This document shows positions 3,497 through 18,849 of a DNA stretch of 64,000 nucleotides, piece by piece. Source of the stretch: Escherichia coli (GTDB lineage Bacteria > Pseudomonadota > Gammaproteobacteria > Enterobacterales > Enterobacteriaceae); assembly GCF_003334255.1 (NCBI RefSeq), contig NZ_QOWU01000005.1; one strand, written 5' to 3'. The position numbers were made by a program, and so were the translations under genes. The stretch's first letter is position 1. The number at the start of each line of letters is the position of its first letter. The notes beneath the pieces are model-generated. The model was not told the origin of the DNA and ran no database searches. It saw only the letters and a list, made by a program, of their open reading frames with translations.

Positions 3497-3700
<204 letters not shown>

Positions 3701-8098: not shown

Positions 8099-8375
8099 TA
8101 GTTGCCGGATGCGGCGTGAACGCCTTATCCGGCCTACGGCTCTGTGCTCGGGTCTTGTAGGTCTGATAAGACGCGTCAGCGTCGCATCAGGCACTGAATG
8201 CCGGATGCTGAATAAACGCCTTATCCGGCCTACGGTTCTGTGCTCGGGACTTGTAGGCCTGATAAGACGCGCCAGCGTCGCATCAGGCACTGAATGCCGG
8301 ATGCGGCGTGAACGCCTTATCAGTCCTACGGTTCTGTGCTCGGACCTTGTAGGCCTGATAAGACGCGCCAGGCAA
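8099..8375. repeat. REP/BIME array, three tandem units of about 95 bp
   Basis: Three near-identical tandem units containing GCCGGATGCGGCGTGAACGCCTTATCCGGCCTACGG and GTAGGCCTGATAAGACGCG; ORFs 8027..8419 and 8076..8438 are translations of these repeats. Confidence 0.8.
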
Positions 8376-12511: not shown

Positions 12512-13405
12512 ATGACGAATTTAAAAGCAGTTATTCCTGTGGCGGGTCTTGGGATGCATATGTTGCCTGCCACTAAGGCGATTCCCAAAGAGATGCTACC
12601 GATCGTCGACAAGCCAATGATTCAGTACATTGTTGACGAGATTGTGGCTGCAGGGATCAAAGAAATCCTCCTGGTAACTCACGCGTCCAAGAACGCGGTC
12701 GAAAACCACTTCGACACCTCTTATGAATTAGAATCTCTCCTTGAACAGCGCGTGAAGCGTCAACTACTGGCGGAAGTGCAGTCCATCTGTCCGCCGGGCG
12801 TGACCATTATGAACGTGCGTCAGGGCGAACCTTTAGGTTTGGGCCACTCCATTTTGTGTGCACGACCTGCCATTGGTGACAACCCATTTGTCGTGGTGCT
12901 GCCAGACGTTGTGATCGATGACGCCAGCGCCGACCCGCTGCGCTACAATCTTGCTGCCATGATTGCGCGCTTCAACGAAACGGGCCGCAGCCAGGTGCTG
13001 GCAAAACGTATGCCGGGTGACCTCTCTGAATACTCCGTCATTCAGACCAAAGAACCGCTGGATCGTGAAGGTAAAGTCAGCCGCATTGTTGAATTTATCG
13101 AAAAACCGGATCAGCCGCAGACGCTGGACTCAGATATTATGGCCGTTGGTCGCTATGTGCTTTCTGCCGATATTTGGCCGGAACTTGAACGTACTCAGCC
13201 TGGTGCATGGGGGCGTATTCAGCTGACTGATGCCATTGCCGAACTGGCGAAAAAACAGTCCGTTGATGCAATGCTGATGACTGGTGACAGCTACGACTGC
13301 GGTAAAAAAATGGGCTATATGCAGGCGTTTGTGAAGTATGGACTGCGCAACCTGAAAGAAGGGGCGAAGTTCCGTAAAGGTATTGAAAAGCTGTTAAGCG
13401 AATAA
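12512..13405 (+). CDS. galF: UTP-glucose-1-phosphate uridylyltransferase subunit GalF
   Basis: ORF 12500..13405; [39 protein letters not shown]… matches GalF as recalled. Confidence 0.9.
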
Positions 13406-13663
13406 TGAAAATCTGACCGAATGTAACGGTTGATAAGAAAATTATAACGGCGGTGAAGATTCGTGGCGAAAGTAATTTGTTGCGAATATTCCTGCCGTTA
13501 TTTTATATAAACAATCAGAATAACAACGAGTTAGCAATAGGATTTTAGTCAAAGTTTTCCAGGATTTTCCTTGTTTCCGTAGCTGATTGGTAAGACAATT
13601 AGTGTTTGAATTTTTCAGGTTTAGCGCGAGTGGGTAACGCTCGTCACATCGTAGGCATGCATG

Positions 13664-13702
13664 CAGTGCTCTGGTAGCTGTAAAGCCAGGGGCGGTAGCG
13701 TG
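13664..13702 (+). promoter_or_regulatory. JUMPstart element with ops (GGCGGTAGCGTG), RfaH-dependent antitermination site
   Basis: CAGTGCTCTGGTAGCTGTAAAGCCAGGGGCGGTAGCGTG read directly; ops at 13691..13702; located between galF and the O-antigen genes. Confidence 0.8.
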
Positions 13703-13852
13703 TCTAGGGCAGGGAAAGATCACGTGGTGCTGCTTTTTTGTACTAAACAATTTGCATTTTATGTTCAATAATTGAGACATTCCTTATTACCTAAAACTGT
13801 TTTTCATTGCTTATACATGAGCAAATACTCCTTACATAATTAAGGAGAACAA

Positions 13853-14338
13853 AATTGAACTTAAAAAATTGATGGAACATATTTCTATTATCCTCGATTA
13901 TAGACAAGCTAGGAAAGTGAAACATAAATTGTTTGATATTCTACTGTTGACTATTTGCGCACTTATTTCTGGTGCAGAAGGCTGAAAAGATATAGATGGT
14001 TTTTGGGAAACGCATCTTGATTTTTTTAACAATATCGTGATTTTGAAAATGGTATTCCTATTCACTATACCATTGCCAGAGTTGTATCCTGTATCAGTTC
14101 TACAAAATTTCATGAGTGTTTTATTAACTGGATGCGTGATTGTCATTCTTAAGATGATAAAGACGTCATTGCAATTGATGGAAAAACGCTCCGGCATTCT
14201 TATGACAAGAGTCGTCGCAGGAGAGCGATTCATGTCATTGGTGCATTCTCAACTATGCACAGTCTGGTCATCGGACAGATCAAGACGGATGAACAGAAAC
14301 TACCTAGCGTCAGTCCTTGCGGGGAGCGGGCTTTCGTA
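13853..14338 (+). pseudogene. H-repeat-associated (ISAs1-family) transposase remnant, frameshifted and internally deleted
   Basis: Translations give [43 protein letters not shown]-stop, later frames …[41 protein letters not shown] joined directly to the C-terminal [16 protein letters not shown]; these match the H-repeat protein family as recalled. Confidence 0.6.
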
Positions 14339-14413
14339 ATCTTGCCTGTAGCGTTATTTGTTTTCGAGAATAAATATATAATACTCCATGTGGATATTTA
14401 GTTAAAAGAGGAT

Positions 14414-15679
14414 GTGGTGAAAACAGATTTGACTGTATTTAAGAATATTATATCGCTATTTAGCATTCGTTTTGCTGGCTACATAATACCTTTAATCACG
14501 TTGCCGTATCTTGTCAAGGTACTTCAACCTGTTGGATTTGGATATTTATCATTTGGTATTGCTGTTTTACAATATTGTACGCTAGTTGTTAATTATGGGT
14601 TTGATCTTTCAGCAACAAGAAAAATTGCACAGAATAGAGAAAATGTGCATTACATCAGCGATATTTTTTGGAATATTCTTTTTTTGCGGTTGTTTATTTC
14701 TCTTGTAGGTTTTTTAGTATTAGTGGTTTTTATCCATTTATTTCCTGATTTGTATCGAATTAAATGGATTTTGCTTTGGGGGTATTTGTCTGTTTTGGGG
14801 ACAGCTCTCTTTCCAATGTGGTTATTTCAGGGGAAAGAACAGCTTGGACGAATATCAGCAGCTCGTATATTTTTACAGATTTCTTGCGTACCTTTATTTT
14901 TTGTTTTTGTAAAAAACACTCAAGATGATTGGGTCGCATCACTAATATATGCTCTACCGCAGTTGTTAATATCAGTAGTGGCAGTATATATCATTCATAA
15001 AAGGAAGTGGATTGTATTAAAAAAAATAAAACTTGCAACAATCAAGAAAGAATTAATAGATGGTTGGCATCTTTTTATATCTACGGCAGCAATTAGTCTC
15101 TATACAACAACCATTACTGTAGTCTTAGGGATTGTATCAGGTCCCTATAGTGTTGCCATATATACTTCTGCAAATAAAATATTACAGGCGGCTCAGGGGC
15201 TTTATCAACCAATATCCTCTGCATTTTACCCGCGAATAAATAACCTGATGAAAGAAAATAAACAATTAGCATTTAAAACTATAAGAAAACTATTTAAAAT
15301 ACAGTTTGTTATTACTATTTGCATAAGCGTTGGGTTGTTTTTGTTTTCTAATATTGTTGTTGATATTTTATACGGTGATGATTATCGAAATGCGGCATTA
15401 ATTCTTCAGCTATTATCACCTATTCCTATAGTTGTGGGATGTAGTAACATTTTTGGAATACAAATATTATTAACATGTGGTTATAAAAAGGAGTTTTCCA
15501 CTATTTTACTGATCTCAGGGCTTATTAATATGATTTTGATATTTCCTCTTTGCTATAAGTTTAACGAGTTTGGAGCAGCATTTTCTGTTTTAATTACAGA
15601 GATATTTGTTACTGTTTCTATGCTGTTTGTGGTTATTCTGAAAAAAATACCGGTTTGGGAGAGTAAGCGTAATGTATGA
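14414..15679 (+). CDS. wzx: O-antigen flippase (Wzx family); likely GTG start
   Basis: 421-aa polytopic membrane ORF, AT-rich; first gene after JUMPstart; RBS AAAAGAGGA upstream. Confidence 0.7.
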   Translation: MVKTDLTVFKNIISLFSIRFAGYIIPLITLPYLVKVLQPVGFGYLSFGIAVLQYCTLVVNYGFDLSATRKIAQNRENVHYISDIFWNILFLRLFISLVGFLVLVVFIHLFPDLYRIKWILLWGYLSVLGTALFPMWLFQGKEQLGRISAARIFLQISCVPLFFVFVKNTQDDWVASLIYALPQLLISVVAVYIIHKRKWIVLKKIKLATIKKELIDGWHLFISTAAISLYTTTITVVLGIVSGPYSVAIYTSANKILQAAQGLYQPISSAFYPRINNLMKENKQLAFKTIRKLFKIQFVITICISVGLFLFSNIVVDILYGDDYRNAALILQLLSPIPIVVGCSNIFGIQILLTCGYKKEFSTILLISGLINMILIFPLCYKFNEFGAAFSVLITEIFVTVSMLFVVILKKIPVWESKRNV

Positions 15680-16792: not shown

Positions 16793-17995
16793 ATGAAGCT
16801 ATATTATATCTGTTCGGATTTTTATCCTTCTGGCACTGGTTTTGCAATATCGTTTACGAATTTTATACAGTTTATATTAGATTCAAATAAATTCGAGCAT
16901 ATCACGATACTAACTACAAATTCTAAAGCATCTTTGCCTGAAAATTTCAACGAACGTGTTTCATTGCAAACTTTTGATGTCAGAGGTGAGTTGAAGTTAG
17001 CTAGGTACTTTAGATCATCTATTCTTCTTGACTTGTATTCAATATTTAAATATAGACGCATTCTGCATATGTTAAAATGTTGTTGTATTAAGTCTGATGA
17101 TGTATTCTTTTATGAGGAGTTTTATTTTGGCAATCTTTATAAATATTTGAAAAGACGCTTTCCTTGTAATAAGCATATAATACGAGTGCATGGGACAATG
17201 CCAGAGTTTGTGACGTTTGATCGTTCAAATAGATATAGAAAAATATTATTTAAACAAGCTTTAGAGCTAAAAAACAATAGAGAAAATAAAATAACAATTG
17301 CAACGACAACATCTTTTTATATTGATTTCATTAATACTCATATACTTAAAAATCAGTATGGAACAATATGTAATGTAGATTATATTTTTCTACCAAATAG
17401 TATATATAGTAATAAAAATATTCCGCAGACACAAAAGTCAGAAAATATGTCCAATTCTTTAACTTTATTGCAGTTGGGGAGAATGGATAAAGGTGGGTAC
17501 TTCCAAAAAGGGTTTGATGATACGATTAAAGCATTAAATTATATTAATTCAGATGTTTTTTTATCCCATCGGATACGTCTTGTTACTATTGGTAGTGGTG
17601 AGAAAAAAAAATATTTTAAAGATAAAATGAGGGATCTAAAAAACATAGCATTTGAACATTATGAAAATATAAATAATGAAGCTGTTAATGACTTAATAAT
17701 GCAGGCTGATGTTATACTCTTACCATCAAGATGTGAAGGTATGTCAATGTTTGCAGTCGAAGCTATTTCGCTAGGAAAACCAATAATTACGACAAGAAAT
17801 ACTGGAGTTGATGATATATGTATTGAAGGAGTTAATAGTCTGAAATTTGATATGTTTAATTATGTTGAGTATGCACAAGCTATCGAAAAAATAATCAAAG
17901 AACCGCATTTGATTAGACAAATGGGATATAATGCTTTTGCTGTTTCAAAAGAAAATGAAAAGAAATTAAAAGCAAATATAGAGGCCTTTTTGTGA
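16793..17995 (+). CDS. glycosyltransferase (GT-B, family 1/4-like)
   Basis: 400-aa AT-rich ORF; C-terminal region …LPSRCEGMSMFAVEAISLGKPIITT… resembles the GT4 E-x7-E region. Confidence 0.6.
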   Translation: MKLYYICSDFYPSGTGFAISFTNFIQFILDSNKFEHITILTTNSKASLPENFNERVSLQTFDVRGELKLARYFRSSILLDLYSIFKYRRILHMLKCCCIKSDDVFFYEEFYFGNLYKYLKRRFPCNKHIIRVHGTMPEFVTFDRSNRYRKILFKQALELKNNRENKITIATTTSFYIDFINTHILKNQYGTICNVDYIFLPNSIYSNKNIPQTQKSENMSNSLTLLQLGRMDKGGYFQKGFDDTIKALNYINSDVFLSHRIRLVTIGSGEKKKYFKDKMRDLKNIAFEHYENINNEAVNDLIMQADVILLPSRCEGMSMFAVEAISLGKPIITTRNTGVDDICIEGVNSLKFDMFNYVEYAQAIEKIIKEPHLIRQMGYNAFAVSKENEKKLKANIEAFL

Positions 17996-18849
17996 TGATT
18001 TATAGATATATATTAAATCTATTTCCTGACACTCTATTTATTAGATTGCGATATTTTAAACGATTTAAGCGTATTTTACACTTGAGAAAACCGAAGCGAT
18101 TTACTGAGAAAATTATGTGGTATAAACTTTTTTATCATGATAATTTGATGACTATCTGCGCAGATAAGTATCGTGTAAGAGAATATATAAAGGAAAAGGG
18201 GTTCGGTGATATATTGGTTCCATTGTTTAAAGTATATAATACTCCAGATGAAATAAAAATTGATGAATTGCCTTGTCAATTTATTTTAAAAGGGAATAAT
18301 GGAAGTGAGACTAATTTAGTTGTTAGGGATAAGAGTAAAATAACCGAGAAGTATATAAGGCATATAGTTTCTGGATGGATGGCTAATAACCAAGTTATTA
18401 CTTTGGGGAAAGAGTGGTGTTATCAGAATATTGAATTTAAGATAACTGTGGAGCAGCTATTAGAATCAGAAGGAGAGGATGGCATTGATGACTATAAATT
18501 TCTTTGTTTTAATGGTCGCGTTCATTATATATGGGTTGATAAAAATCGATTTACAAGCCACACCAGAACTTTTTTTGATCGAGACTGGAATGTGATAAAT
18601 GTAGAATCAGATCATCCAGCTGCTAGTTTTTCTATAGATAAGCCTTGGGGGTTTGAAAAAATGCTACATATCGCTGAAGATATAGGTAAAGATTTCCCAT
18701 TTGCTAGAGTTGATTTTTATAGTGTAAACAAAAAGGTTTATTTTGGTGAGATAACTTTTTATCCATGGAGTGGCATGGTGCAGTTTCAACCAGATAGTTT
18801 TGATTTTGATATGGGTGATAAATTTATTCTGCCAAAAGAGATGTTATAA
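17992..18849 (+). CDS. TupA-like ATP-grasp family protein
   Basis: 285-aa ORF; C-terminal RVDFYSVNKKVYFGEITFYPWSG resembles the TupA-like ATP-grasp family, recognised from memory only. Confidence 0.45.
   Translation: MMIYRYILNLFPDTLFIRLRYFKRFKRILHLRKPKRFTEKIMWYKLFYHDNLMTICADKYRVREYIKEKGFGDILVPLFKVYNTPDEIKIDELPCQFILKGNNGSETNLVVRDKSKITEKYIRHIVSGWMANNQVITLGKEWCYQNIEFKITVEQLLESEGEDGIDDYKFLCFNGRVHYIWVDKNRFTSHTRTFFDRDWNVINVESDHPAASFSIDKPWGFEKMLHIAEDIGKDFPFARVDFYSVNKKVYFGEITFYPWSGMVQFQPDSFDFDMGDKFILPKEML

Follow-up and report, generated by a model that had tools for sequence, protein, structure and literature searches.

The stretch of DNA analyzed here (the window) comprises 64,000 nucleotides of an Escherichia coli genome (contig NZ_QOWU01000005.1). 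It runs from the colanic-acid (wca) genes through galF, the O-antigen cluster, gnd, ugd and wzzB to the his operon. The window is collinear with strain 214-4 (NZ_CP025840.1) at an identity of about 99%, and it is in the RefSeq annotation of this strain that wzx and wzy of the O-antigen cluster are named “O167 family”. Positions refer to the window and, except where stated, to the + strand.

The conserved left flank of the O-antigen locus is galF (12512–13405), placed by its open reading frame (ORF) and by the RefSeq annotation of strain 214-4. This is followed by a 39-bp JUMPstart element (13664–13702), which the Rfam model RF01707 recognizes with 60 bits against a gathering score of 35 (E 5e-13). 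The final 12 bases of JUMPstart (13691–13702) read GGCGGTAGCGTG in the window sequence and form the ops site, and the element with its ops 12-mer stands 5′ of the first gene of the cluster. A 7-bp spacer, TCTAGGG (13703–13709), which is common to the E. coli clusters L002, L005 and L007, separates ops from the left end of an insertion sequence (IS) relic. The relic occupies 13710–14348, with its left end 7 bp past JUMPstart/ops and its right end 65 bp before wzx. The intervening serogroup-specific spacer (14349–14413) holds the wzx ribosome-binding site, AAGAGGA, and leads into wzx (14414–15679), the first gene of the cluster, which encodes the O167-family O-antigen flippase and begins with GTG (ORF; RefSeq annotation). 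There is no second JUMPstart 3′ of the relic, as Rfam at E ≤ 1 returns 13664–13702 alone. The original prediction had placed a degraded transposase immediately after JUMPstart/ops and ahead of the first O-antigen gene, and the Rfam match together with the IS start at 13710 bears this out. The range then proposed, 13600–14340, does contain the IS, but its borders were wrong: 13600–13709 is 110 bp of galF–wzx intergenic DNA including JUMPstart, and the last 8 bp of the IS were left out.

Several other features of the window were recorded. Two palindromic arrays of the REP/BIME type are present, one at 3497–3685 in the cpsB–cpsG intergenic region (2.1 copies of an 88-bp unit, of which strain 214-4 carries one more) and one at 8103–8371 between wzxC and wcaK (2.8 copies of a 96-bp unit). 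Just upstream of sbmC, positions 45489–45496 are the empty site of an ISL3-family element, ISEc53. The insertion is absent from the window and lies at L004:45497–47383 in strain 214-4 with an 8-bp duplication, ATATAAAA. A gene for an NAD-dependent epimerase is located on the − strand between ugd and wzzB (27052–28056). Within the O167-family cluster, 17995–18849 encodes a protein of the ATP-grasp amidoligase family. Since amide-linked L-alanine is listed as a constituent of the O167 antigen (PMC7685785), this protein is a candidate for attaching the L-alanine. The same review reports that O167 has one glycosyltransferase more than expected (PMC7685785).

The identity of the element was established from several directions. 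Nearly all E. coli genomes contain ISAs1/ISEc1 transposase genes that are matched by a query of 1021 bp spanning the region. When the intact 378-aa ISEc1 transposase of E. coli SE11 (locus L003) was used as a tblastn query, residues 1–57 aligned in one frame (45/57 identical) and residues 57–148 in another (81/92 identical), with a combined E of 9e-67, while residues 359–378 (16/20 identical) were back in the first frame. The repaired translation scores 136.9 bits against the NCBIfam profile NF033564, “ISAs1 family transposase” (cut-off 70), in a match that spans profile positions 1–121 of 314 alone. It also matches the Pfam family DDE_Tnp_1_assoc (PF13808) with E 2e-26, and the match of the relic to DDE_Tnp_1 covers the first 56 profile positions alone (E 0.017). 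In three genomes, the RefSeq/PGAP label for 13854–14296 is [quoted passage not shown]. Alignment, both profiles and this annotation thus agree on the degraded ISAs1/H-repeat transposase that had been predicted, with a similarity well above chance. Transposase homology is joined by terminal inverted repeats that open with CAGGG, both being marks of the ISAs1 family. The intact DDE region and the length of approximately 1.2–1.5 kb that belong to an autonomous element are missing from the 639-bp relic, as is a direct target-site duplication. The element is therefore the relic of an ISAs1-family member and not a working one. More exactly, 13710–14348 is read as an inert IS relic of the H-repeat/ISEc1 type in the leader of an O167-family O-antigen operon.

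The anatomy of the relic was resolved by aligning it, with blastn and MAFFT, to two intact ISEc1 copies of 1291 bp (L002:3388–4678 and L003:3633–4923). These define an internally deleted element of 639 bp with both ends kept. The left terminal inverted repeat, CAGGGAAAGATCACG (13710–13724), starts identically to the intact copies. The right repeat, CGTAATCTTGCCTG (14335–14348), has the reverse complement CAGGCAAGATTACG and is one base shorter than the usual ...CTTGCCCTG, having CCTG in place of CCCTG. Because both terminal inverted repeats are kept, the feature is an internally deleted element and not a mere gene fragment.

The transposase gene is broken at several points. Its start codon at 13854–13856 has changed from ATG to ATT (G to T at 13856), as seen in the alignment, the list of private substitutions and tblastn. 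In-frame stops have arisen at 13983–13985, where TGA stands for Trp44 (TGG; W44*), and at 14150–14152, where TAA stands for Ser100 (TCA; S100*), both in the alignment and in tblastn. A 1-bp deletion of a G, between 14029 and 14030, shifts the frame after codon 57, as indicated by the alignment and the tblastn frame switch. It had been proposed that the N-terminal part is interrupted by a stop and frameshifts; the part is broken, but by a lost start, two stops and one 1-bp deletion.

The remaining lesion is a deletion of 650 bp, the endpoints of which were mapped by alignment to intact ISEc1 copies. It takes out ISEc1 positions 585–1234, corresponding to codons 148–362. The junction lies at an ATGA microhomology (14289–14292), located by overlapping blastn pieces (query 890–893) and by the tblastn jump from residue 148 to 359–363. 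This microhomology of 3–4 bp is shared between ...GGATGAGAAA... and ...CCATGGACAG... in the intact element. The central region is thus joined directly to the C-terminal tail, as the original prediction had stated. The tail consists of codons 363–378 (14289–14336) and the stop codon (14337–14339), together 14289–14339, from tblastn and ORF translation. A loss of 650 bp cannot be divided into whole codons, and the tail consequently does not continue the reading frame of the central part. In the usual layout of DDE transposases, from which the placement of the later catalytic residues is taken, the deleted codons 148–362 would hold the second Asp and the Glu of the DDE triad. With its gene dead several times over, no transposase can be made and the element is unable to move on its own; it also has no further copies.

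For the distribution of the relic, the deletion junction together with the wzx flank was used as the query against 5,426 complete E. coli genomes. A one-piece match was found in three of these, all O167-family, and they are the three complete genomes with this O167-family cluster. Elsewhere, the two halves of the query lie approximately 450–680 bp apart, as in intact elements. Intact ISEc1 is common in E. coli, with a median of 5–6 matching places per genome, and the best identity of any copy outside the O167 clusters in these 5,426 genomes is 91.4%.

The abundance of intact ISEc1 copies and the retention of both terminal inverted repeats would fit a non-autonomous, MITE-like derivative that is mobilized in trans by the intact ISEc1 transposase. 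Yet the deletion junction occurs at one locus alone, in 3 of 5,426 genomes, the right inverted repeat is short by one base, and there is no target duplication. The single-locus distribution, where several dispersed copies would mark such a derivative, effectively refutes this proposal, and it is considered extremely unlikely.

One of the three junction genomes, L013 (NZ_CP062824.1), has a different background from the window and allows the history of the relic to be followed. Identity to L013 is 96.2% in galF and 95.0% in the galF–JUMPstart intergenic DNA. It reaches 100% in JUMPstart and the 7-bp spacer, and is 98.9% in the IS relic (7 substitutions, no indels) and 99.4–99.9% in the nine cluster genes from wzx through the last glycosyltransferase gene, before falling to 96.4% in gnd. 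Divergence is thus approximately 4–5% before JUMPstart, 0.1–1.1% from JUMPstart on, and up again in gnd. No difference lies between 13617, the last differing position 5′ of the boundary, and 13728, which places the left crossover, as read from these identity steps, at the JUMPstart/IS-left-end boundary. Every indel lesion of the relic is also found in this diverged lineage. From the lesions held in common and the steps in identity, it follows that the relic predates the spread of the cassette and travels with it. Whenever the O167 cassette is exchanged among E. coli lineages by homologous recombination in the flanks, the relic is passed on as a constant component of it.

The L013 record is labelled O169:H41, yet it carries an O167-family wzx/wzy cluster that is 99–99.9% identical to that of the window, so that label and cluster type disagree. 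An apparent difference from L013 in the ATP-grasp gene was dismissed, as the proteins are identical and the annotated start alone differs. A mosaic origin of the relic was likewise rejected: its 7 differences from L013 show no clustering, and only 2 positions in the 56 bp of the right end depart from ISEc1.

The relic has also decayed. Over the retained 583 bp it is 88–91% identical to five other copies, whereas these are 89–98% identical among themselves, and the three ISEc1-type copies among them 96–98%. It carries 30 private substitutions, at positions where all five other copies agree, and is in this respect a sequence outlier to the intact ISEc1 copies. The private substitutions comprise 22 GC-to-AT changes against 4 AT-to-GC, a bias which is the signature expected of unconstrained mutation. 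A comparison of the window with L013 gives 7 substitutions in the 639 bp of the relic against 35 in about 9.5 kb of cluster genes, a substitution rate approximately three times that of the neighboring genes. The relic has long been under neutral drift.

In terms of its relatives, the relic has CAGGG... ends and gene order in common with the intact ISEc1/H-rpt copies of the ybfD, ydcC and yhhI type, which are often found beside Rhs elements. The amino-acid identity to intact ISEc1 is 79–88%. The intact element is 1291 bp in length and encodes a 378-aa DDE transposase, whereas the 639-bp relic lacks codons 148–362 and has four further disabling lesions. ISAs1 elements are present in the same orientation and in the same intergenic region in the O15-family (ATCC 8739, NCTC86, ST69), O3-family, O173-family (SE11) and rfbBA-containing (Z1322HEC0003) clusters. 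In contrast to the internally deleted relic, these copies have all or almost all of their length, and nesting occurs among them. They are no closer in sequence to the O167 relic than unrelated copies are, which gives no support to a common descent of the insertions. Common descent of the relic and the O15-type element is not supported, as the two are 88.3% identical, lower than the identity to unrelated copies.

Members of the ISAs1 family duplicate approximately 8–10 bp of target DNA. A direct-repeat search at the borders of the relic found no target-site duplication: the left flank reads GTGTCTAGGG and the right TAGCGTTATT, these first bases of the wzx spacer (opening letters TAGCGTTATTTG from the IS right end in the window sequence) being no repeat of the left flank. 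As a positive control, the nested ISEc1 in O15-type clusters (L005/L006) has a perfect 10-bp duplication, ACAAGCCTGG, on both sides. On its left, the relic is flanked by conserved sequence also seen after ops in other clusters, and the right flank is present solely in O167-type genomes. The relic is therefore found exactly at the border between the conserved galF–JUMPstart DNA and the serogroup-specific DNA. Given the missing duplication, the two flanks of the relic would not have adjoined each other prior to the arrival of the IS, and an IS-associated event would have replaced one of them or both. This suggests that the relic marks an IS-associated rearrangement junction, by which the galF–JUMPstart region was joined to the serogroup-specific genes. 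Candidate mechanisms would include recombination between two IS copies, resolution of a cointegrate, and adjacent deletion.

It could also be that an H-repeat was inserted late into the leader of an already assembled O167 operon and then decayed, the duplication being lost by local deletion, with no role in assembly. In at least four other cluster types, intact or nested ISAs1 copies do occur in the interval from JUMPstart to the first gene, and their distances from ops differ: 8 bp in the O15-family, about 77–85 bp in the O3-family as well as in one further cluster type, and about 325 bp in SE11 (O173-family wzx). The nested ISEc1 copy with its fresh 10-bp duplication points the same way. However, a duplication is missing from the O167 relic and from the outer O15-type element alike, and in both clusters the right end of the IS coincides exactly with the start of serogroup-specific DNA, which is better accounted for by a junction role than by two independent flank deletions. 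A late insertion is possible, and on balance rather doubtful.

With regard to the rearrangement junction, the missing duplication shows that a flank has changed; it does not prove the kind of event or the import of the O167 genes by the IS, and an adjacent deletion in situ would look alike. Neither a donor sequence nor an IS-free O167 cluster was found for comparison. The original prediction that such a remnant marks past recombination of the cluster accordingly receives indirect support from the absent duplication, the border position and the identity steps, while the IS as the cause of assembly is unproven.

The nested elements are of note in their own right. ISEc1 is nested in ISAs1 just past JUMPstart at L005:2561–5142, as well as in L008, and in L006 with L009, L010 and L011 (O15-family: ATCC 8739, ST69 O15:H18, NCTC86 and 118UI). 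In NCTC86, the inner ISEc1 lies at a different point of the outer element. A genome paper reported that transposition of H-repeats has not been observed (PMC3032704). The nested ISEc1 with its 10-bp duplication is evidence, in silico, that H-repeat elements transpose.

The O15-family clusters offer the closest parallel in position. The outer element has its left end 8 bp past ops, compared to 7 bp for the relic, with no target duplication and with O15-specific DNA directly at its right end. Two unrelated clusters, O167-family and O15-family, thus have an IS left end 7–8 bp past ops, no duplication, and serogroup-specific DNA at the right end. It may be that ISAs1/H-repeat elements repeatedly land or cross over in the bases just 3′ of ops, although this is put forward as an unlikely proposal. 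If true, ISAs1 elements could act as portable homology for the swapping of whole O-antigen cassettes behind a resident JUMPstart.

Some further likenesses to ops were observed at these sites. At 14341–14360 and at L002:4670–4690, in two unrelated cluster types, the shortened right end (CTTGCCT) is followed within 0–3 bp by GTAGCGT, the 3′ core of ops, and the right-end junction in the window, GCCTGTAGCGTT, matches ops at 9 of 12 positions. The GTAGCGT could be due to chance, to a target preference, or to the stub of a donor ops, and is too slight for any claim. Just past ops at L002:3303–3320 and L007:2553–2570, the sequence TCTAGGGGAAG(G/A)TCATCG is similar to CAGGGAAAGATCATC, the left end of ISAs1 (13/14 in L007). 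Its first base corresponds in position to the start of the IS in the O167 and O15 clusters, with the IS of L002 and L007 themselves approximately 80 bp further on. The suggestion of an older IS-end relic after ops in these other clusters was rejected as too weak, because 6/500 and 89/500 shuffles equalled the similarity of approximately 14 bp.

RfaH loads at ops and stays with RNA polymerase along the operon. The relic is most likely transcribed passively, as an untranslated leader of approximately 640 nt, from the promoter 5′ of JUMPstart. RfaH loaded at ops would then carry the polymerase through an untranslated stretch of approximately 710 nt between ops and wzx. A terminator scan found no terminator-like site on the + strand from JUMPstart to wzx, which makes the predicted co-transcription of the relic in an RfaH-dependent leader plausible. 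Across the leader G exceeds C, and Rho-loading sites are C-rich, a composition unlike that of this leader. Four folds around the ends, which covered the ops/IS-left-end region, the left end itself and the leader from the right end to wzx, were no more stable than shuffles, with z-scores of 0.1–1.2. It was also observed that, within 13680–13745, pairing is possible between ops in the RNA, GGCGGUAGCGUG, and CACGUGGUGCUGC of the IS left end, directly followed by U6; this looks like a terminator, and the scan does not flag it.

Alternatively, the relic might be kept for a role in cis in O-antigen expression, for example as an internal promoter, as an attenuator (ops:IS-left-end pairing and U6), or as a spacer for RfaH. 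The relic is present with all its lesions in 3/3 O167-family genomes, weak promoter-like matches (9/12) occur on the + strand at 13744–13772, 13812–13840 and 13901–13930, and the hairpin that pairs ops with 13722–13734 ahead of U6 has a predicted stability of −16.9 kcal/mol. The promoter-like sites, however, are not clearly above shuffle expectation (6 vs. 3.4 ± 1.8), and the z-score of the hairpin is 0.14. The approximately threefold faster evolution of the relic and its GC-to-AT bias are as expected without constraint, while linkage within a recently spread cassette explains its retention simply. A role in cis is thus regarded as very unlikely, and the relic most likely does nothing at present.

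Taken together, these results point to a dead IS relic that is borne by the cassette, marks a rearrangement junction and is passively transcribed as leader, and this reading as a whole is considered very probable on the sequence comparisons made here. The relic is already annotated in RefSeq, and features of this kind have been described since the 1990s; the literature searched contained no published account of the O167 relic specifically.

The nearest precedent comes from Salmonella enterica. Xiang, Hobbs and Reeves (1994), as summarized in PMC3715488, described an H-repeat remnant in the group D2 O-antigen (rfb) cluster, at the point where its group D1 and group E parts join. As presented there, it resembles the O167 relic in being a degraded ISAs1/H-repeat element where DNA of two origins meets, and it is read as a scar of IS-mediated recombination (PMC3715488). 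The D2 remnant differs, on that account, in lying mid-cluster between two identified donor clusters, whereas the O167 relic occupies the 5′ border, after JUMPstart and ahead of the first gene, and no donor was found for it. Within E. coli, mobile elements have been found in 23 of 178 O-antigen clusters, and IS elements have been credited with non-homologous transfer of clusters (PMC7685785).

The practical value of the relic is limited, and it is useful mainly for tracing how the O-antigen cassette was assembled and spread. The deletion junction with the wzx flank provides a stable serogroup-specific marker (3/5,426 complete genomes, all O167-family), and the relic fixes where the exchanged cassette begins on its left side, namely where JUMPstart meets the IS. 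The relic is also a further example in favor of a view of long standing, by which IS elements, and H-repeats especially, help to assemble and move O-antigen clusters.
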